Shown: in pieces, positions 6,160 to 26,128 of the stretch
Layout of the letters: every line of letters starts with the position of its first letter
Position numbering within the stretch: position 1 is the stretch's first letter
Position numbers and translations under genes: made by a program
DNA from: an uncultured Actinomycetota bacterium
GTDB lineage: Bacteria; Actinomycetota; Actinomycetes; JACCUZ01
Assembly: GCA_963728425.1 (NCBI GenBank)
Contig: CAVSKC010000002.1
Location: 74,806 to 138,805 of the forward strand
DNA length: 64,000 bases
Direction of reading: 5' to 3'
The notes under the pieces: generated by a model
Databases searched by the model: none
What the model was told of the DNA's origin: nothing
The model's input: the letters and a program-made list of their open reading frames with translations, nothing else

Positions 6160-7857
6160 TTACCCGGCGTCGGCGAGGCCGCACAGGTGCGGTTTGGTGT
6201 CGACCACCAGCACCGAGCCGTCCCGCTTGGCCTTGTACAGCGCCGCGTCGGCGGCACGGTAGAGCCGGGCCGCGTCGACCGGACGGGACGCGGCCTGGTC
6301 GGCGGGTTCGGTCGCGACCGCCATCCCGATGCTCGCGCCGACGACGAGGCCGTCGACGATCTCCGACCACGGCTCGGCCGCGATCGCTGCCACGAGGTCG
6401 GCAGCGCGCTGCTGGGCGGCGGCCAGCGTCAGGTGCTCGTCCTCGAGCAGGATCGCGAACTCGTCGCCGCCGTGGCGGACCGCCAGGTCGCCGGGACGTA
6501 CCGCGGCGAGCAGCAGCCGGCCGAACCGGCGCAGCACCTCGTCGCCGTAGTCGTGCCCGTGCGTGTCGTTGACCGCCTTGAAGTCGTCCAGGTCGACGAG
6601 CAGCAGAGCCGTCGGGCGCTGGCGTGAGGGGGTCCGGCGGTCCAGCCAGGCGTCGAACGTACGCCGGTTGTGCAGCCCCGTGAGCGGGTCCGTGTTGACC
6701 GCGTGCGACAGCCGGTCGTGCTCGCCCCGCCGGCGCTCCGCGGCGATCTGGGTTCGCGCCGCGACCAGCACCGCCAGCCGCGACTCCCAACGCAGCCGAC
6801 CGAGCAGCGCCGCGTGGTCCTGCTGCGCCTGCACGGCCGCCGACGGCGCGGGACCCGACAGCACCTGGGCGCGGACCCAGAGCGGGAAGCTCCGCGCGCC
6901 GGACGAGGCCGACGACGCCGGCGCCAGCTGGTCGGCTGCGGCGGCCGCTGCCGACGCCTGACCCGCGCGACTCAGCGCCAGCGCGGTTGCGGCGTCGAGC
7001 AGGGGCAGCACCTCGATGTCGGCCCCGTCGGCGAGCACCTGACGGAGGTCGGCGAGGGCGGCGGTGTCGGGGGGCGCGCCGGTCAGCAGGCCGGCCACCA
7101 CGGCCAGCGCCTCGACGTCGCGCCGCCACAACGGCGGCAGAGCCTCGGTGAGCGCGTACGGGACGGCGGCGACGGCCTGGTCCAGCCGATGCCGGGCCGC
7201 TGTCTCGTCCCCGTTCTCCAGCAGAGCCACGGCCCACTCGACCTTGGTCAGCACCCGGTTCACCGCGATCGCGGCCGACTGGGCCGGCCCCTCACAGAGC
7301 GGCTCCAGGTCGCTGGCCCGGCTGTACAGCTCGTCCACGAGCTCCCACAGCCGCAGCGTGTTGAAGGCGGCGGCGATGACCACGTAGCCGGTGCACCGGT
7401 CCAGCGGCGGCTGGTCGCCATCGTCCAACAGCGCCACCGCGCGGCTGGCGTCGGCCATCAGCCGGGCCGTGTCGCCGACCGACGAGGCGGCCAGGCCCCG
7501 CAGGCCGAGCACGATCGCGAGCAGGGCGGGCGCCTCGAGCGCCGTGGCCCGGTCGACCAGGGTGTCCAGGTCACCGGGCAGCAGCCCGGGACGGCCCGGC
7601 GCGGCGGGACGGGAGATCGCGTGCACAACGGCGGCAGCGTCCAGGACCAGGGTGACCTCGGGCCAGCCGCGGGCCTGCGCCGCGACCCGGGCCGCCGGCA
7701 GCGCCGCCAGCGCGGCTGCGTGCTGCTCGCTCTGCACGGCCTCGAACAGCGCGTACGCCGCCAGGTAGGCAGCCCGTCGCGACACATCCACCCCCGCCCG
7801 ATGCGCCCCTGTCACAAGTTCCCATCGACCGGTCGATGGGCCGGCTTGACCCGGCAT
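6160..7857 (-). CDS. Diguanylate cyclase (GGDEF) with long helical N-terminal sensor region
   Basis: Track ORF 6160..8178 trimmed to the ATG at 7855-7857. The C-terminus DPLTGLHNRRTFDAWL...ALLLVDLDDFKAVNDTHGHDYGDEVLRRFGRLL...RHGGDEFAILL is a GGDEF domain. The start is uncertain. Confidence 0.75.
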   Translation of the reverse strand: MPGQAGPSTGRWELVTGAHRAGVDVSRRAAYLAAYALFEAVQSEQHAAALAALPAARVAAQARGWPEVTLVLDAAAVVHAISRPAAPGRPGLLPGDLDTLVDRATALEAPALLAIVLGLRGLAASSVGDTARLMADASRAVALLDDGDQPPLDRCTGYVVIAAAFNTLRLWELVDELYSRASDLEPLCEGPAQSAAIAVNRVLTKVEWAVALLENGDETAARHRLDQAVAAVPYALTEALPPLWRRDVEALAVVAGLLTGAPPDTAALADLRQVLADGADIEVLPLLDAATALALSRAGQASAAAAAADQLAPASSASSGARSFPLWVRAQVLSGPAPSAAVQAQQDHAALLGRLRWESRLAVLVAARTQIAAERRRGEHDRLSHAVNTDPLTGLHNRRTFDAWLDRRTPSRQRPTALLLVDLDDFKAVNDTHGHDYGDEVLRRFGRLLLAAVRPGDLAVRHGGDEFAILLEDEHLTLAAAQQRAADLVAAIAAEPWSEIVDGLVVGASIGMAVATEPADQAASRPVDAARLYRAADAALYKAKRDGSVLVVDTKPHLCGLADAG

Positions 7858-8272
7858 GAACCCCGTCACCCGCGACCTTGCCACACTGGTCGCCCGGAGG
7901 GAGGCGGAGTCGCAGATGGTGGACCACCAGCCCGTCTTCGTGCTGCACGAGCACCACAAGCCACGCCACCACTTCGACCTCCGGCTCGAGGAGGATGGCG
8001 TCCTGCGCTCCTGGGCTGTCCCCCGCGGGCTCCCGGACAGCCCCTCCGACGACCGCCTGGCCGTCGAGGTGGACGACCACGACCTCGAGCACGCGACGTA
8101 CACCGATGCCGACAAGTCGATCGCCGACCACGGCTGGTGGGAGGAGCACGACCGCAACGACCGCCGGATCCTGCTCACCCTGCACGGCGAGCACGGTGCC
8201 CGCCGCTACGCCCTGATCCGCACCGACCGCGACTGGCTGCTGCACCTGACCAAGGAACAGCCGGCCCGCTGA
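7856..8272 (+). CDS. Stand-alone LigD-type 3'-phosphoesterase (PE) domain protein
   Basis: Track ORF. PVFVLHEHHKPRHHFDLRLEEDGVLRSWAVPRGLP...HGARRYALIR is the PE-domain signature. The true start is possibly the ATG at 7916 (MVDHQP). Confidence 0.7.
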   Translation: MNPVTRDLATLVARREAESQMVDHQPVFVLHEHHKPRHHFDLRLEEDGVLRSWAVPRGLPDSPSDDRLAVEVDDHDLEHATYTDADKSIADHGWWEEHDRNDRRILLTLHGEHGARRYALIRTDRDWLLHLTKEQPAR

Positions 8273-8317
8273 GCCGGAGTTGACTCATCAGCCTGGACTG
8301 GTGTGTCCTAGGCCGCG

Positions 8318-8611
8318 ATGACCGTCGCCGCGACCCTGCAGATCCTGGCCGACCCGGTCCGGGCCGCCATCCTCGAGCGGCTGGCGACCGAGTCGCTGTG
8401 CGTCTGCCACTTGCAGGACGAGCTGGGCGCCAAGCAGACCCTCGTCTCCCACCACCTGCGGGCCCTGCGCGAGGCGGGCCTGGTGCTGGCCGAGCCGTGC
8501 GGCCGGTTCACCTACTACCGGCTGACCCCCGGCGCCTTCGACGCGGTCCGTGACAGCGTGGCCGGGCTGGCCGCCGCCAGCGCGGCCGACGTGCCGCGGC
8601 GGCCGTGCTGA
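8318..8611 (+). CDS. arsR: ArsR family metalloregulator
   Basis: Track ORF. LADPVRAAILERLATESLCVCHLQDELGAKQTLVSHHLRALREAGLV has the CVC metal-binding motif. It is the first gene of the ars operon. Confidence 0.85.
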   Translation: MTVAATLQILADPVRAAILERLATESLCVCHLQDELGAKQTLVSHHLRALREAGLVLAEPCGRFTYYRLTPGAFDAVRDSVAGLAAASAADVPRRPC

Positions 8612-10096: not shown

Positions 10097-10420
10097 ATGC
10101 AGTACTTGGTTTCCGTGATCGACGACGGCACCGGCCCGGCTACCCCGACGGAGGACGCTGCCATCGACGTGTTCAACGACCGGCTCCGGGACGAGGGCTA
10201 CTGGGTCTTCGCCGGCGGCCTCGGGTCGCCCGAACCGGCCACCGTCATCGACAACAGGGGTGAGAAGCCGGTGTTCACCGACGGGCCCTTCGTGGAGTCG
10301 AAGGAGTACCTCGCCGGCTTCTGGATCATCGAGGCCCCCGACCTGGACGTGGCGCTCAAGCTCGCCGCCGAGGGATCGAGGGCCTGCAACCGGAAGATCG
10401 AGGTGCGGCCGTTCCTGTGA
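10097..10420 (+). CDS. YCII-related (YciI family) protein
   Basis: Track ORF. MQYLVSVIDD...GPFVESKEYLAGFWIIEAPDLDVALKLA. Confidence 0.85.
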   Translation: MQYLVSVIDDGTGPATPTEDAAIDVFNDRLRDEGYWVFAGGLGSPEPATVIDNRGEKPVFTDGPFVESKEYLAGFWIIEAPDLDVALKLAAEGSRACNRKIEVRPFL

Positions 10421-11658
10421 GCGGGATCGACGTCCAGGAGGCGATCACCCGGGCCCACCAGGAGGAGTGGGCACGGGTGGTGGCCGGTCTGACGAGGCGG
10501 TTCGGTGACCTCGACATCGCGGAGGAGGCAGCAGCCGAGGCGTTCGCGACGGCCGTCGAGCGGTGGCCGGCCGACGGCGTGCCCCCCAACCCCGGCGCCT
10601 GGCTGACCACCACCGCCACCCGCAAGGCCATCGACCGGATCCGGCGCGAGAGCAAGCGCGACGACAAGCAGAAGGAGGCTCAGATGGTGTACGACGTCGC
10701 CCCGCCCGAGCCGGTCGGCGTCATCGAGGACGAGCGGCTCCGGCTGATCTTCACCTGCTGTCACCCGGCGCTCGCGACGGAGTCCCGGGTGGCGCTCACC
10801 CTGCGCATGGTCGGCGGTCTGACCGTGCCCGAGATCGCCCGCGCCTTCCTGGTCCAGGAGGCCACTGTGGGGCAGCGGATCACCCGCGCCAAGGCGAAGA
10901 TCAAGGTCGCTCGGATCCCGTATCGGGTGCCGTCCGCGGAGGATCTCCCGGCGCGCGTCTCCGGCGTGCTCGCCGTCCTCTTCCTCGTCTTCAACGAGGG
11001 CTACCTGGCGACCGGCCCCGACACCGATCCCGTACGCCACGAGCTGACCGCCGAGGCGATCCGGCTCACTCGCCTGGTCCGTGCCCTCATGCCGGAGGAC
11101 GGTGAGGTGGCCGGGCTGCTGGCCCTGATGCTCCTCACCGAGGCCCGCCGCACCGCCCGGGTCTCGGCGAGCGGCGAGCTGGTCACCCTCGACGAGCAGG
11201 ACCGCGGGGCCTGGGACTCGGCGCTGGTCGCCGAGGGTCATCGGCTGGTGCGCGAGCGCTTAGCAGCCAGTGCCGCCGGGGTGGCTCCGGGTCGCTACCA
11301 GATCCTCGCCGCGATCAATGCCGTGCACACCTCCGCCCGCGACGTACGCGACACCGACTGGTCGCAGGTCGTCGCCCTCTACGACCAGCTCGTCCGCCTC
11401 GACCCCTCGCCGATCGTCGCCCTCAACCGGGCCGTCGCCGTCGCCGAGCTCGACGGCCCGGAGGTGGCACTGGCGACCGTCGACCGGCTCGAGGACAGGT
11501 TGGCCGGCTATCACGCCTACCACGCGACCCGCGCCGACCTGCTGCGCCGGCTGGGCTGCAGTCAGCAGTCGCGCGCGGCGTACGACAGAGCCATCGAGCT
11601 CGCGGGCAACACCGCCGAGACCGCCTACCTGACACGCCGGCGCGACCAACTGGGGTAG
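10417..11658 (+). CDS. RNA polymerase sigma-70 family factor of the YciI-associated class (ECF-like N-terminus, long TPR-like C-terminus)
   Basis: Track ORF, 413 aa. The GTGA overlap with yciI is the typical pairing. AWLTTTATRKAIDRIRRE and LRLIFTCCHPAL motifs are present. Confidence 0.8.
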   Translation: MSGIDVQEAITRAHQEEWARVVAGLTRRFGDLDIAEEAAAEAFATAVERWPADGVPPNPGAWLTTTATRKAIDRIRRESKRDDKQKEAQMVYDVAPPEPVGVIEDERLRLIFTCCHPALATESRVALTLRMVGGLTVPEIARAFLVQEATVGQRITRAKAKIKVARIPYRVPSAEDLPARVSGVLAVLFLVFNEGYLATGPDTDPVRHELTAEAIRLTRLVRALMPEDGEVAGLLALMLLTEARRTARVSASGELVTLDEQDRGAWDSALVAEGHRLVRERLAASAAGVAPGRYQILAAINAVHTSARDVRDTDWSQVVALYDQLVRLDPSPIVALNRAVAVAELDGPEVALATVDRLEDRLAGYHAYHATRADLLRRLGCSQQSRAAYDRAIELAGNTAETAYLTRRRDQLG

Positions 11659-11673: not shown

Positions 11674-12456
11674 TCAGAGCACGGCGAGCATGCCGCCGTC
11701 GACGTAGACGACCTGGCCGTTGACGAAGTCCGCCGCCGGGCTGACCAGCCACAGCAGCGGCCCGACCAGGTCCGCCACCTCGCCCCACCGCCCGGCCGGC
11801 GTCCGGCCGCGCACCCAGGCGCTGAACTCCTTGTCCGCCACCAGGTCCGCAGTCAGCTCGGTCACGAGGTAGCCGGGGCCGAGCCCGTTGACCTGGATGC
11901 CGTGCGGCGCGAGGTCCGCGCACATCCCCTTGGTCAGCATCTTCAGCGCGCCCTTGGTGGCGGCGTAGGGCGCGATGCCCGGCCGGGCGACCTCGCTCTG
12001 CAGCGAGCAGACCGTGACGATCTTGCCTTGGCGCCGCGGCACCATCCGCCGGCCGACCTCGCGGGCGACCAGGAAGGTGCTGGTGAGGTTGGTGTCCAGC
12101 AGCCGGAACCAGTCGTCGTCGGCGAAGTCCAGGAACGTACGCCGGTGCTGGGCGCCCGTGTTGCACACGACGATGTCCAGCGGTCCGGCGACCTCCTCCA
12201 CCTGCGCGACACCCGCCACCACCGCGGCCGGGTCGGCGTTGTCGAAGGCCACGGCGTGCACCGCACCGCCACCGGCGTCGGCGGCCGACTGCAGCGATGC
12301 CCGGGCCGCCTCGAGGGCAACGCCGTCACGACCGTTGATGACCACCGTGCAGCCGGCGTGCAGCAGCCCGGCCGCAAGGCCGAGCCCGATGCCGCGGCTC
12401 GACCCCGTCACCAGAGCCACCCGCCCCGTGATGTCGAACAGCGGGTGCGCGGTCAC
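11674..12456 (-). CDS. SDR family oxidoreductase (gluconate 5-dehydrogenase-like)
   Basis: Track ORF. It has the TGSSRGIG Rossmann motif and the YAATKGAL catalytic motif. Confidence 0.85.
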   Translation of the reverse strand: MTAHPLFDITGRVALVTGSSRGIGLGLAAGLLHAGCTVVINGRDGVALEAARASLQSAADAGGGAVHAVAFDNADPAAVVAGVAQVEEVAGPLDIVVCNTGAQHRRTFLDFADDDWFRLLDTNLTSTFLVAREVGRRMVPRRQGKIVTVCSLQSEVARPGIAPYAATKGALKMLTKGMCADLAPHGIQVNGLGPGYLVTELTADLVADKEFSAWVRGRTPAGRWGEVADLVGPLLWLVSPAADFVNGQVVYVDGGMLAVL

Positions 12457-12749
12457 CGCCGCATCATCCCGCTCGCTGGCCGGGACGCCAGACGGCAGGC
12501 GCTCTGTCTACGCGGGGTCGCGCGCCGCCCATCCCCCGCCGGCGACGCGCGACCCCACCCAGTCACCCGGGGCCACCGGGTAAGCACTCGGCAGGTTCGC
12601 CGGCGGTGCAGGCAGGGGACCGCCCCTGTTCGGCCCCTACCCGACACCATCCTCGGCTTCTACCAGGGCGCCTCGTCAAGAGTGTCTTGACGATGTGTCA
12701 CCATGCGAGTCATGCCGGACGGTGCGCGGAACCGCAGCCGACGGGCAGG

Positions 12750-12872
12750 TCAGCAGCAGCGCGGCGGCAGGGACTGGGCGCCGCCACCATCCGCGACCGC
12801 CGGCGACGACACGCCACCGGACAACACCAGCGCGAGCGCCACGGCGACGGCCATGGCAATCTTCTTGATCAT
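12750..12872 (-). CDS. Unlisted 40-codon ORF encoding a Sec-type pro-peptide ending in Cys-Cys
   Basis: MIKKIAMAVAVALALVLSGGVSSPAVADGGGAQSLPPRCC. ATG at 12870-12872 with GGGAG 5 nt upstream. It has a K-rich n-region, a hydrophobic core and an AVA|D cleavage-type site. About 36 of 40 third positions are G/C. TGA at 12750-12752. Confidence 0.55.
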   Translation of the reverse strand: MIKKIAMAVAVALALVLSGGVSSPAVADGGGAQSLPPRCC

Positions 12873-12913
12873 CTTGACTCCCGTGTCAGAGAATCTGACA
12901 CCTCAGAGTCAAG
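12873..12913. promoter_or_regulatory. Compound nested palindrome in the divergent promoter region (candidate operator or 5'-UTR hairpin)
   Basis: CTTGACTC cc GTGTCAGA gaa TCTGACAC ctca GAGTCAAG. A third TGTCAGA half-site is at 12942-12948. The related palindrome CGTCAAGA gtg TCTTGACG is at 12674-12692. Confidence 0.6.
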
Positions 12914-13024
12914 GCTCGTTGTCGACGGCAGTCAATGGGCCTGTCAGAATGACTGCGATGCGTGGTCACGTCCGCACGGAGTGTCCTGGCTCTTCCCCGC
13001 CGACCAACCCTGGAGGCTGCCCCC

Positions 13025-14395
13025 ATGCACCCGGCGTCGGACCTCGGAACCTTCGGCAGCAGGCTGCACGCGGCACGGCTCCAGGCCGGCCTGTCCCAGG
13101 CAGAGCTCGCCGGCGACGACTTCCACTCCAGCTACGTGTCGCTGCTCGAGTCGGACAAGCGGACCCCGACCCACGACATCGTCGCGGCCGTCGCCCTCCG
13201 CCTCGGCGTGAGCGAGGACTACCTGCTGCACGGCGACGACCCGGTGCTGGCCAACCAGGTCGCCCTGGCCGTCACCTACGCCGAGATCGCCGTCCGCAAC
13301 GGCGAGGCGGCAGATGCACTCGCCCAGATCGACACCCTCATCGCCCGCGGTGGACGGTTGTCACCGCGGCTGCACGCGCAGGCGCATCGAGTCCGCGCGC
13401 AGGCGCTCGAGGCCGTCGGCCGCCTCCGGGACGCTGCCACCGAACTCGAGGAGCTCGCCGCCGCCGCCCAGCACGGGCATCGTTGGAACGACTACCTCGC
13501 CATCACCGTTGACCTGGTCCGCTGCTATCAGCAGGCCGGCGACGTCGACCACTCGATCGACCTGGCGCGGTCGGCTCTGAGTGAAGTCAGCGGCCTGGGA
13601 CTGGCCGGATCGGACGAGCACGCCCGACTGGCCTCGACCCTCGTCGGCAGCTACTACGTGCGCGGCGACCTGACCAAGGCGGCCATCGAGGCCCGGCAGG
13701 CCCTGGAAGCTGTCGAGAGCCGCGGCTCCGCCACCGCCCGGGGGTCAGTCCTCTGGAACGCCTCACTCGTCGCCGAGGCCGCTGGCAACATCGACGAGGC
13801 ACTGGCCTTGGCCGAGCGAGCCCTCGCGTTGTTCGCCGACGGCGACGACGAGCGCGCACTTGCCAGACTTCAGGTCGCCTACGCCTGGCTCCTCCTGCGC
13901 ACGACACCCCCGCAGCCGCAGGAGGCACGCAAACTGCTGACCAAGGCCCACAAGAAGCTCAAGGACGTCGGCGCCGCCGCGGACCTGGCCTCCGTCGAGA
14001 CCGAGCTGGCAGTCGCCGCCCTCATGCTCGACGAACCCGAACGGGCGCTGAGCCTGGTCGACGACGCCAGCAACCGGCTCACCGACGACAGCCCCATCGA
14101 GCAGGCCACCGCACGACTCGTCCGCGGCCGGGTACTCATGTCGATGCGACGTAGGGCCCAGGCCACCAAGGAGTACCGGGCCGCTGCTGAGACTCTCGCG
14201 CAGACCACGTCCGGGCGCACCGCGGCCGCCGCCTGGCGGGAGCTCGCCGACGCGTACGTCCGCCTCGGCATGGTCGAGGACGCCGCCTTGGCCTACCAGC
14301 AGGCGCTCACCGACGTCGGCATCACCGCGGCCCCGGGCGTCGACGACCCAACCAGCCGGCGCGAGCCGACCACCACCTCACCGCGCGACCGCTGA
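13025..14395 (+). CDS. XRE-family HTH regulator with about 400-aa TPR-like C-terminal region
   Basis: ATG at 13025 with GGAGG 8 nt upstream (track ORF 12962..14395). FGSRLHAARLQAGLSQAELAGDDFHSSYVSLLESDKRTPTHDIVAAVALRLGVSEDYL is an XRE HTH. The remainder is repeated helical A/L-rich pairs. Confidence 0.8.
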   Translation: MHPASDLGTFGSRLHAARLQAGLSQAELAGDDFHSSYVSLLESDKRTPTHDIVAAVALRLGVSEDYLLHGDDPVLANQVALAVTYAEIAVRNGEAADALAQIDTLIARGGRLSPRLHAQAHRVRAQALEAVGRLRDAATELEELAAAAQHGHRWNDYLAITVDLVRCYQQAGDVDHSIDLARSALSEVSGLGLAGSDEHARLASTLVGSYYVRGDLTKAAIEARQALEAVESRGSATARGSVLWNASLVAEAAGNIDEALALAERALALFADGDDERALARLQVAYAWLLLRTTPPQPQEARKLLTKAHKKLKDVGAAADLASVETELAVAALMLDEPERALSLVDDASNRLTDDSPIEQATARLVRGRVLMSMRRRAQATKEYRAAAETLAQTTSGRTAAAAWRELADAYVRLGMVEDAALAYQQALTDVGITAAPGVDDPTSRREPTTTSPRDR

Positions 14396-14413
14396 CAGAC
14401 ACCAGGGGGGACC

Positions 14414-15256
14414 ATGTCGAGCACAGCGCAAGGAGACGCTCGGACCACCTACCGCCAGCTGAGGGTGGCAATGCCACTTCTGGTAGCGCTCCTGGCGGCC
14501 GCCGTGTTGCACCAGATCTTCAAGCCGGAACCCGACTGCTGGCTCGGATCGATCAGCGCGTACTACTACACCCCTGCACGGGCCGTCTTCGTGGCCAGCC
14601 TCTGCGCGATCGGCATCTGCCTCATCATCTACCGCGGGAGCACTCCGCGCGAAGACGCCGTGCTCAACCTGCCTGGGGTGCTGGCGTTCGTCGTGGCGTT
14701 CATTCCGACGCCACTCAAGGACCTCACAGTCGAGCCCGACAGCTGCCAACACAGCAACGTGCCGACCGAGACCCAGCTGGCGACCGCCCTCAACAACAAC
14801 ATCTTCGCCCTTCTCACCGGACTGACCCTGGCGGTCGTTGTGGTGATCGCATTCCGCGCGCTGCACGTCAGCTCAGCCAGCGCGGTACCCACGTATGGCT
14901 TCGCCGTCTTCGTTGCGGCGGGCTGGGTCTGGTTCGTGGCTGCCCCGGCCAACCTTCGCCAGTACGGCCACATAACCGCCGCGATCCTGTTGTTCATCGG
15001 CATCGTGGCCGTGACCGTCATGCACGCGTTCAACATGGTGTGGTTCGACCCGAAGTCCACGCCGGCGCCGGCACCTTATCGCGACATCTACCGCGCCATC
15101 CTCGCCGTCATGATCGTCGGCTTCGTCGTCATCGGCGGCCTCGCCCTGTTCGCCAGCTTCGACCACACCGTGTTCTGGCTCGAGAGCCTGTTCATCACCT
15201 TGTTCGGCGGGTTCTGGATCACCCAGACCGCCGAGCTGTGGCACGACACCGACTGA
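14414..15256 (+). CDS. Polytopic membrane protein of unknown function (about 8 TM segments)
   Basis: Track ORF, 280 aa, starting 18 nt after the regulator stop. It has eight hydrophobic stretches and conserved-looking extracytoplasmic Cys residues (PDCW, DSCQH). Confidence 0.7.
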   Translation: MSSTAQGDARTTYRQLRVAMPLLVALLAAAVLHQIFKPEPDCWLGSISAYYYTPARAVFVASLCAIGICLIIYRGSTPREDAVLNLPGVLAFVVAFIPTPLKDLTVEPDSCQHSNVPTETQLATALNNNIFALLTGLTLAVVVVIAFRALHVSSASAVPTYGFAVFVAAGWVWFVAAPANLRQYGHITAAILLFIGIVAVTVMHAFNMVWFDPKSTPAPAPYRDIYRAILAVMIVGFVVIGGLALFASFDHTVFWLESLFITLFGGFWITQTAELWHDTD

Positions 15257-24418: not shown

Positions 24419-26128
24419 ATGAGGGCGCGGCCGGTGCCGCGCCCTCCGTCGACGTGCCCGCCCAGTCGCGGCGGCCCGCTGCAACTCGGGCCGGCCTTCG
24501 CCCGCAGCCCGGTGGCGATGGGCGTGGTCGACGCCTTCGGCAGGCTGCTCGCCGTCAACCAGGCGCTGGGCGACTACCTGGGCCGGTCGCCGGCCAAGCC
24601 TTGGTCGGTACGACGTTGCACGCGCACGCCTCGGCCGACGACGTGGGCCGGCTGCGCACCGGGACCTCGGAGCGACGGCTGCGGCACGCCCGCGGCCATG
24701 ACCTGTGGGCCGTCGTGTCCGCGGTGCCGATGCCGGAGGCGGGCGACGGCGCGACCCTGGTCTGCCTGGACGACGCCACCAGCCGGCGCAACACCGAGCG
24801 GATGCTGCTGCACGCCGCCCTGCACGACAGCCTGACCAACCTGCCCAACCGGCGGCTGCTGCGGGACCGGCTCGACACCGCGCTGAGCCGGGCCCGGCGG
24901 TCGACCGAGCGGGTGGCGGTGCTGTTCGTCGACCTGGACCGCTTCAAGGCCGTCAACGACACGTTCGGCCACGACGTCGGCGACGAGGTGCTGGTGTCGG
25001 TGGCGAAGGGCATCCTCGGCGCGCTGCGGTCCAAGGACACGGTGGCCCGGCTGGGCGGCGACGAGTTCGTGGTCGATCGCGCGAGGAGCTGGGCGACGAC
25101 GAGGACCTGGGCCGGCTGGTCGCGCGGCTGGTCGACGGCATCAGCCGGCCGGTGACACGTGCACGGGCGCGAGGTGTCGGTGTCGGCGAGCATCGGGGTG
25201 GCGATCGCCGTCGCCGGACGCCGACACCGGCGACGAGCTGCTGCGGCTGGCCGACCTGGCGATGCTGCGGGCCAAGCAGCACCCGGAGCTGGCCTACGTG
25301 GTGGCCGACGAGTCGGTGGGCGACGAGCTCAACGGTGACCCGCGCGAGGGCGCGCGGCCTGACCGCCGAGCTGCGGCACGCGATCCAGGCCGACCTGCTC
25401 GAGCTGCACTACCAGCCGGTGGTACGCGTCGACGGGCACCTGATGGGGCTCGAGGCGCTGCTGCGCTGGCAGCACCCGCGGCTCGGGATGCTGCTGCCCG
25501 AGGACTTCCTGCCGCGGGTGGCCGGCACCGAGCTGGCCGGGTCGCTGTCCGACTGGGTGCTGCGGGCCGCCGTACGCGACGCCGCGAGCTGGCACGACCC
25601 GAGCCTGCGGGTCAGCGTGAACATGTGGGCCGGCGAGGTGGCCCGGCCGGGCTTCTCCGACACGGTGGCGATGCTGCTGACCTGGGCCGGGCTGCAGGCG
25701 GGCGGGCTGTATCTCGAGCTGCACGAGCGCGACCTGCCGGAGGCCGGCCCGTCCCTGGGCGACGAGCTGGACCGGCTGCGGCGGATGGGCGTCGGCCTGG
25801 CGATCGACGACTTCGGCTCCGGCGGCACGTCGCTGGCCGGGCTGCGGCGGCTGCCGGTCGACACGCTGAAGGTGGACCGGTCGTTCGTGCAGGGCTGCGT
25901 CGACGACCCGGAGGACGGCGCGGTGGTGGCGGCGGTGGCGACCGCGGCCCGCGCGGCCGGGCGGCACCCGCTGGCGACGGGCGTCGAGACCGCGGCCCAG
26001 CTGCGGCGTGCTGCGGCGGCTCGGCTACGAGAGCGTGCAGGGCTACCTCACCGGTGCCCCGGCGCCGGCTGATCGACCTGCGCGACGTCATCGCCAGCCG
26101 CCAGATCGCGCTCCCCGCGACCAGCTGA
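24419..26128 (+). pseudogene. PAS-GGDEF-EAL signalling protein, about 7 frameshifts
   Basis: Pieces lie in ORFs 24419..24835 (PAS: SPVAMGVVDAFGRLLAVNQALGDYLG), 24328..25155 (GGDEF: VLFVDLDRFKAVNDTFGHDVGDEVL...LGGDEFVV), 24705..26072 (EAL: LELHYQPVV...LEALLRWQHP...LAIDDFGSGGTSL), 25262..26128 and 26008..26343. The start is uncertain. Confidence 0.8.

Follow-up and report, generated by a model that had tools for sequence, protein, structure and literature searches.

Introduction

Cell-cell signaling in actinobacteria is known almost wholly through small molecules, namely gamma-butyrolactones, furans and butenolides. RRNPP(A) systems, in which a cytoplasmic receptor of tetratricopeptide repeats (TPRs) reads a gene-encoded exported peptide, have a known host range of Bacillota and their mobile elements. 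Large RRNPP surveys either describe actinobacterial signals as small molecules or leave the phylum unmentioned, and the RRNPP_detector paper explicitly treats cytoplasmic RRNPP-type peptide receptors as a Firmicutes speciality. Here we analyze a 64,000-nucleotide stretch of DNA from an uncultured Actinomycetota bacterium (contig CAVSKC010000002.1; the whole stretch is called the window below), in which a 40-codon gene for a predicted secreted peptide ending in Cys-Cys lies divergent from the gene of a regulator that joins a helix-turn-helix (HTH) domain to a TPR domain.

Three of the six features listed for RRNPP(A) systems are found at this locus: a TPR-domain cytoplasmic receptor, an N-terminal HTH of the kind seen in the PlcR, NprR, PrgX, Rgg and AimR branches, and an adjacent pro-peptide gene, whose product is predicted to be exported. 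The host range, a matter of known distribution and not of mechanism, differs, the loci considered here belonging to Actinomycetota. The original prediction, made from the letters of the window, had held that no such system was characterized in this phylum; searches of open-access full texts, including the main RRNPP surveys, agree with it, as they returned neither an actinobacterial RRNPP-type system nor a Cys-Cys peptide system, and curated families likewise held none. We propose, with modest confidence, that the two genes form a peptide-receptor cassette which most likely works like an RRNPP quorum-sensing pair. Since the pair recurs across Streptomyces, Cellulomonas and other actinobacteria, the phylum probably has a peptide signaling system that has so far gone undescribed.

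Results

A small-peptide gene beside an HTH-TPR regulator

The pro-peptide gene occupies positions 12750-12872 of the minus strand (40 codons and a stop; translation MIKKIAMAVAVALALVLSGGVSSPAVADGGGAQSLPPRCC), with a Shine-Dalgarno sequence GGGAG (12878-12882, minus strand) 5 nt before its ATG. All of this had been claimed in the original prediction together with a GC bias of third codon positions, and it is borne out by the translation and by the composition of the open reading frame (ORF), whose GC content at codon positions 1, 2 and 3 is 0.68, 0.57 and 0.90. An independent gene caller also listed it as a 40-residue gene in a public assembly of identical sequence. The predicted Sec signal peptide (residues 1-27; 12792-12872, minus strand) has a KK n-region, a hydrophobic core and A-V-A before the cut, which would leave an exported 13-mer, DGGGAQSLPPRCC (12753-12791, minus strand), with the conserved tail PPRCC at 12753-12767. 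Signal peptide and cleavage site (AVA followed by D) are predicted by heuristics and by a sub-threshold match to the NCBIfam model Phr_nterm (E = 4.5e-4, 20.5 bits against a cutoff of 25), and sites of the form A-x-A followed by D or G lie at the equivalent place in the related loci L081, L005, L007 and L002. When the six frames of the window were searched, this was the only ORF to combine a signal-like N-terminus with CC within the last eight residues. Among 5.8 billion proteins the 40-residue peptide matched two near-identical 'hypothetical proteins', bearing in mind that significance is out of reach for peptides this short.

The regulator gene (13025-14395, plus strand), preceded by a Shine-Dalgarno sequence GGAGG (13012-13016, plus strand), diverges from the small ORF across a gap of 152 bp. 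Its 456-residue product consists of an HTH (about 13052-13231) followed by a TPR superhelix (about 13241-14314), as delimited by Pfam and by an AlphaFold2 model. In Pfam, HTH_3/HTH_19 match residues 10-72 (28.4 bits for HTH_3 against a cutoff of 23) and several TPR families match as far as residue 429, with TPR_12, TPR_2, TPR_14, TPR_16 and TPR_19 above cutoff. The model (mean predicted local distance difference test score 88) shows the HTH and then 18 helices, that is, about nine TPR-like repeats; neither a signal peptide nor a transmembrane segment was found in the protein. Pfam and the model thus confirm the predicted XRE-type HTH-TPR protein.

Conservation of the pair across Actinomycetota

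With a profile of homologues and data holding one genome per species, we collected 80 loci encoding regulator homologues (33-95% identity) from Streptomyces, Kitasatospora, Streptacidiphilus, Actinacidiphila, Actinoplanes, Streptosporangiaceae, Cellulomonas, Actinotalea and uncultured genomes. To pass the filter that we applied, a small ORF had to have K or R among its first 10 residues, at least 10 hydrophobic residues in a row and CC among its last 8. An ORF passing this filter lies within 730 bp upstream of the regulator at 53 of 79 loci, as against 19 of 718 control windows of the same loci (Fisher p = 1.3e-46). Another 11 loci have a CC-ORF 100-300 bp downstream of the regulator, and seven more (L020, L076, L006, L043, L063, L057 and L053) have one if a relaxed distance or a C-terminal extension is allowed. 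A peptide gene of 40-70 codons, whose product starts like a signal peptide and carries Cys-Cys at its C-terminus or close to it, is therefore present at 71 of the 80 loci. The original prediction had named lack of conservation in relatives as what would refute it; the small ORF is instead conserved beside regulator orthologues and more distant homologues, and the pair spans at least five actinobacterial orders. Three of the nine loci without a peptide gene end where the ORF would be expected.

The small ORFs behave as coding sequences. Variable sites fall mostly on third codon positions in three groups of small ORFs (2/1/15, 11/5/21 and 25/15/38 at positions 1/2/3); a fourth group (2/4/4) consists of three nearly identical sequences and carries no information on this point. 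GGAG or GAGG precedes the start codon in nearly all homologous small ORFs, and RefSeq and other annotations list some CC-ORFs as 'hypothetical protein'. A chance reading frame is excluded by the control windows and by this codon-position pattern.

What the loci share is the pair. When neighboring ORFs of the 80 loci and the window segment were clustered, the regulator was found in 76 of 81 sources and the next commonest family in 20. Gene order varies by clade (divergent, same-strand upstream or convergent downstream), with the pairing kept and following the regulator tree; the peptide-regulator pair is the only one common to the loci, while gene order and neighbors differ. On such comparative evidence the small gene and the HTH-TPR regulator are shown to form a conserved, co-inherited module across Actinomycetota.

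The cassette is chromosomal in the window and in most related loci, and some Streptomyces copies lie on large linear plasmids. Examples of the latter are L082 (5541-5756 and 5836-6042; S. goshikiensis NZ_CP108058.1) and L077 (5865-6077). The plasmid-borne CC-peptide is annotated as WP_008741297.1, 'hypothetical protein', and is followed by a second small secreted ORF without CC and then by a large BTAD/SARP-type regulator gene. Transposase-like ORFs occur inside or beside the cassette at L076 (5839-7527) and L020 (5409-6641; DDE_5 confirmed in L020), and in L076 the insertion parts the regulator from the peptide gene by about 2.4 kb. L004 (JAJAYQ010000108.1) is a contig of a metagenome-assembled genome binned as Spirochaetaceae that carries an actinobacterial-type regulator as well as an EAL gene sharing 72% identity with the one in L081; this contig was probably assigned to the wrong bin. 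In a phage collection, the single match was an unverified high-GC contig in which no peptide gene was seen.

Anatomy of the peptide family

When the peptides are aligned by anchoring on CC, conservation is focused on the C-terminal four to six residues and the middle is free to vary; the conserved end is where RRNPP signals are usually cut from. Three classes can be told apart. Class 1 has the tail P-x-C-C, with P at -2 and CC invariant in 17 of 17 peptides, and includes the window (LPPRCC), uncultured relatives, and Kitasatospora and Streptomyces peptides ending D-[IVL]-P-[LVA]-C-C. Class 2, from Streptomyces, has G-x-C-C after a Ser/Gly-rich stretch. Class 3, from Cellulomonas and Actinotalea, has G-[AS]-T-G-C-C-[RK] and 1-3 further residues. 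Typical A-x-A sites followed by D or G lie 13-20 residues from the end in class 1 and in many class-3 peptides, and no Pfam or NCBIfam model covers any of the three classes. The residue before CC varies clade by clade, and tail class and gene arrangement both track the regulator tree. L081 has a PPRCC tail identical to that of the window although its regulator is only 50% identical.

Two further observations concern these tails. Peptides of the Streptosporangiaceae clade end in CC plus D or E, or in CC plus a short extension. A peptide of 655 Da, never identified, has reportedly been described as an import of BldK in S. coelicolor, and the class-2 tail SGASGACC (e.g. L036, 3571-3723) has a mass of 654.2 Da, numerically near it; no model strain was among the class-2 regulator matches, and since many fragments could match 655 Da by chance, the agreement is likely a chance match and we keep it only as a weak lead.

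The regulator family

The regulator family comprises at least 764 clusters at 50% identity (E <= 1e-30), nearly all of 430-470 residues. Six residues in the region of the recognition helix (S36, Y37, S39, L40, E42 and R46) and three in the TPR domain (G214, D215 and W244) are invariant in 82 of 82 regulators; in the TPR domain, R213 and N245 are kept in 81 and R277 and W404 in 80. Homologues carry generic names in all their sources. The original prediction would have been refuted had the regulator grouped with HTH-TPR families of known non-peptide role; no such named family was found, and NCBIfam matches were all sub-threshold.

The family profile, compared with the sequences of the PDB, matched PlcR with E = 1.4e-6 over query residues 10-194 (the HTH and first TPRs). 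PlcR was the sole natural full-length regulator so matched, the others being designed TPR proteins or isolated HTH domains. With the single regulator sequence as query, the HTH alone aligns, the best matches being the ComR DNA-binding domain and the 434 repressor, and on these alignments homology to RRNPP receptors appears weak rather than shown. At the level of structure, NprR, Rap and PlcR are among the top 50 Foldseek matches of the model in the PDB, with TM-scores of 0.55/0.68 for apo NprR (5dbk), 0.53/0.64 for phage phi3T Rap and 0.38/0.56 for PlcR with PapR7. The modeled fold would be compatible with an RRNPP receptor, though as a generic TPR fold it is not diagnostic.

Putative operators at the peptide promoter

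Several repeats lie between the two genes. An operator-like nested inverted repeat (12874-12912) consists of TTGACTC (12874-12880) and GAGTCAA (12906-12912) around GTGTCAGAgaaTCTGACAC (12883-12901). Upstream of the peptide gene, a direct repeat TTGACT-N17-TTGACT lies at 12907-12935 on the minus strand, and a third TGTCAGA-type site, TGTCAGAATGAC (12942-12954, plus strand), is conserved in L001 and partly in L005. The segment 12874-12948 contains two of the three GAGTCAA sites and three of the four TGTCAGA sites of the whole window, the latter three within 12884-12948.

These repeats are conserved together with the peptide gene. Across seven class-1 genomes (regulators 46-52% identical to that of the window), the blocks and arms of the leader are invariant and the spacers have diverged; in the direction of the peptide gene, the order of the blocks is TTGACT, N17-18, TTGACTC, N4-6, GTCA, N7, TGAC, N3-4, GGAGTCA, N2-3, ATG. 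Exact TTGACT-N17-TTGACT occurs once in each of 23 loci and stands directly upstream of the small ORF in 22 of them, spanning classes 1 and 2, whose regulators share about 36% identity. The 23rd occurrence, in L076, pointed to the CC-peptide gene that is split from its regulator by the transposase-like insertion, and a search allowing one mismatch led to the peptide gene of L006 (tail NPPSCC), about 1 kb downstream of the regulator; both genes had been missed by the first scan. In classes 1 and 2 the region upstream of the peptide gene also contains TGAC palindromes; in class 3 it contains TGTCA-N9-TGACA, some 40-50 nt ahead of the start codon, to which Cellulomonas adds AGTCAA. The invariant recognition region of the HTH would fit the TGAC core half-site that the classes share.

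As RNA, the window leader is predicted to fold into a hairpin over the Shine-Dalgarno sequence (-30.6 kcal/mol, z = -2.6). No covariation was seen in the leader stems of the seven diverged genomes, whose arms are invariant, and the leader had no match in Rfam. Because the arms are invariant without compensatory changes and Rfam gave no match, a DNA operator is favored over an RNA switch, and we read the repeats mainly as putative DNA operators that may play a dual role in the RNA alongside. A scan of 12400-13100 found neither sigma-70 promoters nor intrinsic terminators. The spacing of TTGACT-N17-TTGACT is promoter-like, but its second hexamer does not fit the TANNNT pattern of a -10 box.

The same hairpin, by overlapping the Shine-Dalgarno sequence, would suit a Cys-codon leader peptide, that is, a translational attenuator, and tandem Cys codons ending a short ORF do recall the polycysteine attenuators of mycobacteria. 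Depending on the clade, however, the ORF diverges from the regulator, converges with it or lies as much as about 2 kb away, so it cannot be the leader of one downstream gene; unlike the polycysteine attenuators, it is not fixed on the same strand upstream of a cysteine-related operon, and neither cysteine-metabolism genes nearby nor a conserved downstream gene were found. GC-rich, terminator-like hairpins stand 3' of the small ORF in L081 and L005, and attenuation would not need a conserved secretion-type N-terminus. A leader peptide, or for that matter a chance ORF, is thus scarcely credible as an explanation.

One further repeat, the palindrome TCGTCAAGAgtgTCTTGACGA (12673-12693) 3' of the small ORF, was considered as an element and dropped because it is not conserved even in L001.

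Neighboring genes

Eighteen nucleotides past the regulator stop begins a gene for a 280-residue membrane protein (14414-15256, plus strand). The original prediction had placed it there correctly and given it about eight transmembrane segments, of which a hydropathy scan found seven clear ones and a possible eighth; neither Pfam nor NCBIfam gave a match for it. Its proposed place in the locus architecture did not hold up. In L001, where the flanking DNA is 93% identical on both sides, about 70 bp take the place of the gene, and no homologue was found at any other related locus. The gene is missing from L001 and every other locus and therefore lies outside the system; we reject it as a component and regard it as a strain-specific indel.

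Other neighbors in the window are unrelated: an SDR gene, an extracytoplasmic function (ECF)-type sigma factor gene, a YCII gene, a DUF6510 gene and oxidoreductase genes. At 10097-11658 the YCII-domain gene overlaps the start of the ECF-type sigma factor gene, which has a DUF6596 C-terminal domain, an arrangement that has no relation to the cassette; pairs of YCII and ECF-type sigma factor genes are common in actinobacteria.

Elsewhere, some clades have neighbors of their own. Throughout the class-2 clade of Streptomyces, a complete importer of the Opp/Dpp (oligopeptide/dipeptide permease) type ends 35-50 bp from the peptide gene (L085, 2562-8536; also L018, L022, L025-L039, L047-L049, L062, L064, L071 and L074). 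It comprises an SBP_bac_5 protein, two permeases and a fused double ATPase with oligo_HPY domains. Genes for EAL-domain proteins lie by the cassette in L081 (9383-10216, overlapping the regulator stop codon), L002 (2414-3592), L004 (1760-2491), L061 (6063-6770) and Cellulomonas (e.g. L021, 2006-3598). These stand-alone EAL genes, of the cyclic di-GMP (c-di-GMP) phosphodiesterase type, may represent an output of the system that is particular to certain lineages. The window itself has a GGDEF gene (6160-8178) and an EAL-like match near 25353-25907, neither of which adjoins the cassette.

In Streptosporangiaceae, a gene for a cytoplasmic S9 (prolyl-oligopeptidase-family) protein sits between the regulator and the CC-peptide gene (L043, 5359-7170; L057, 5360-7183; L078, 5440-7548). 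Such a neighbor would be in keeping with a precursor of a ribosomally synthesized and post-translationally modified peptide (RiPP), short, Cys-containing and with a conserved C-terminal core, for which the HTH-TPR protein would serve as cluster regulator. The S9 protein lacks a signal peptide, however, and is confined to this one clade. Unlike in RiPP clusters, clustering of the neighbors revealed no modifying enzyme conserved with the CC-peptide gene, the Pfam domains of the neighbors being unrelated, and Sec signal peptides are unusual for RiPP precursors. A RiPP origin of the peptide therefore seems very improbable to us.

Discussion

The RRNPP-cassette architecture put forward in the original prediction stands as a candidate, now backed by many loci instead of one, with an HTH-TPR receptor beside a conserved Sec-type pro-peptide gene; that the pair signals is what we infer from this arrangement. 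An RRNPP-like loop is the simplest model that matches a cytoplasmic HTH-TPR regulator, a small, putatively exported peptide whose C-terminal tail is conserved, and operator-like repeats at the peptide gene. In this model, the 40-residue precursor would be exported by Sec and cleaved after Ala27 to give DGGGAQSLPPRCC, possibly trimmed further to a short tail containing PPRCC. The peptide would build up outside the cell and be taken up again by an oligopeptide permease, such as the one that Streptomyces relatives carry beside the cassette. Once inside, it would bind the concave face of the TPR superhelix of the regulator and so shift the occupancy of the TTGACT and TGTCA-TGACA repeats in the 152-bp divergent promoter region. 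Altered occupancy would set the expression of the peptide gene, and probably that of the regulator too, closing a feedback loop. Outputs beyond the pair would be lineage-specific, with c-di-GMP phosphodiesterase (EAL) genes attached in several lineages.

A number of observations weigh against such a loop: (i), six loci with complete flanks have no peptide gene within 4 kb; (ii), export, processing, import and peptide-regulator binding are all steps that we infer; (iii), an adjacent Opp system is seen in one clade only, where inherited synteny could account for it; (iv), Foldseek ranks generic TPR proteins (LGN) first, and the best TM-score (0.59/0.71) belongs to domain III of MalT, which is sugar-sensing; (v), in the profile search that the original prediction had called for, TPR families matched above the Pfam cutoff and RRNPP-specific Pfam or NCBIfam models gave no match to the regulator at E <= 1; (vi), class-2 peptides combine a hydrophobic segment of 20-21 residues with the lack of a clear A-x-A site. 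Generic TPR proteins and MalT domain III score as well as or better than RRNPP receptors, and the fold alone therefore cannot decide.

This ambiguity of the fold leaves room for the main rival, a regulated secreted effector, which we consider unlikely and still worth weighing. Here the peptide would be an extracellular end product (a thiol or redox buffer, a binder of Cu, Zn or Hg, an antimicrobial or a surface-active compound) and the TPR domain would sense another ligand or protein, as MalT domain III-type sensors, which match its fold as well as RRNPP receptors do, sense something other than a peptide. The operator-like repeats at the peptide gene argue for control of the peptide, not for sensing of it; an invariant Cys-Cys is typically a mark of metal or redox chemistry more than of the known RRNPP signals, and in L057 the peptide gene is followed by one for a DsbA-like protein of the thioredoxin fold (7689-8399). 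Yet no metal-, redox- or resistance-related gene common to the loci was found. The pairing survives repeated rearrangements and is kept on plasmids, which would be easier to explain for a signal and its receptor than for a regulator whose single target is tiny; the position ahead of CC differs between clades in a pherotype-like manner, and a peptide importer adjoins in Streptomyces.

Alternatively, the class-2 peptides could stay membrane-anchored, given their long hydrophobic stretch without a clear A-x-A. Extended to the family, this would mean a small protein with an uncleaved signal anchor whose outside CC tail has its role at the membrane, for instance by partnering a transporter or sensor in a redox-sensitive way; that class-2 peptide genes abut ABC transporter genes would be in line with it. 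Class-1 and many class-3 peptides do carry typical cleavage sites, however, the cytoplasmic part of such a protein would measure 3-5 residues, too short for contact with a cytoplasmic regulator, and the tie to a cytoplasmic HTH-TPR protein would be left unexplained. We judge a membrane anchor to be improbable, and retain a signaling pair as the explanation that we favor.

From this pair a wider proposal can be drawn, which we put forward tentatively, as possible rather than probable: that Actinomycetota (Streptomyces, Kitasatospora, Cellulomonas and many uncultured members) share phylum-wide, gene-encoded peptide pheromones that end in Cys-Cys, are imported by Opp and are read by HTH-TPR receptors analogous or anciently related to those of RRNPP systems. 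The vicinal cysteines, which may act through a disulfide, a metal or other thiol chemistry, would add a redox or metal dependence, and in several lineages EAL proteins would provide a c-di-GMP output. If true, a conserved peptide-receptor pair would amount to a second signaling language in the main antibiotic-producing bacteria, and pheromones of phylum-wide reach would overturn the textbook split between small molecules in actinobacteria and peptides in Firmicutes. They would also offer concrete candidates for the peptide signals that Opp/BldK-type importers have long been supposed to take up in Streptomyces development, and a peptide signal with a C-terminal vicinal Cys pair would be new signal chemistry. 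A defined regulator family, predicted operators and short synthetic peptides provide handles that could serve for gene switching in Streptomyces and uncultured relatives. These ideas are testable in cultivable carriers: Cellulomonas species, the Streptomyces prunicolor group, S. goshikiensis plasmids and Kitasatospora.

How, then, does the cassette compare with known systems? MalT, LAL and STAND regulators join an NTPase (NB-ARC or AAA) domain to a C-terminal TPR-like sensor and a DNA-binding domain of the LuxR or SARP type, and differ in that the regulator described here is without an ATPase, LuxR or BTAD domain; TPR_MalT matches it weakly (E = 0.007, 16 bits against a cutoff of 45), and the structural similarity to MalT domain III is restricted to the TPR-like superhelix. 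The gamma-butyrolactone/ArpA systems of Streptomyces are, as the cassette may be, a means of cell-cell signaling, in the same organisms, and combine a cytoplasmic receptor-repressor with an adjacent gene for signal production. Their signal is an enzyme-made small molecule and their receptor is of the TetR type, whereas a gene-encoded peptide and an HTH-TPR receptor are proposed here.

Among peptide systems, PrgX-PrgQ of the Enterococcus plasmid pCF10 and TprA-PhrA of Streptococcus resemble the window in their divergent genes and in operator sites (putative here) in the shared intergenic region, with a regulator that acts, as it presumably does here, on the peptide promoter. PrgX, however, is a plasmid conjugation switch governed by two antagonistic peptides, derived from a lipoprotein signal sequence or from PrgQ. 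AimR-AimP, the arbitrium of Bacillus phages, has, like the system proposed here, an HTH-TPR receptor, a secreted pro-peptide (43 residues) with an active C-terminal hexapeptide, Opp import and a repeat operator with a long spacer; it is phage-borne and decides between lysis and lysogeny, whereas no verified actinophage copy of the cassette was found. NprR-NprX of Bacillus has an HTH and nine TPRs, a similar size and a secreted pro-peptide gene beside the receptor. There, the NprX gene is downstream and co-transcribed, the active peptide is internal, not C-terminal, and NprR doubles as a Spo0F-binding protein; homology to NprR was not detected here at the sequence level.

Finally, PlcR-PapR of the Bacillus cereus group differs in its phylum (Bacillota as against Actinomycetota), in its regulator (five repeats and 285 residues, as against about nine TPR-like repeats and 456 residues) and in its box (TATGNAN4TNCATA as against TTGACT and TGTCA-TGACA), and sequence similarity is marginal. 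An invariant Cys-Cys end sets the actinobacterial peptides apart from it, and we know of no RRNPP signal that ends in this way. What the two systems have in common is a regulator that joins an XRE-type HTH at its N-terminus to a TPR domain, a neighboring gene of some 40-50 codons for a Sec-type pro-peptide that is conserved at its C-terminal end, a palindromic box before target genes that include the peptide gene itself, and Opp-dependent re-import, which the adjacent Opp genes of Streptomyces suggest for the actinobacterial pair.

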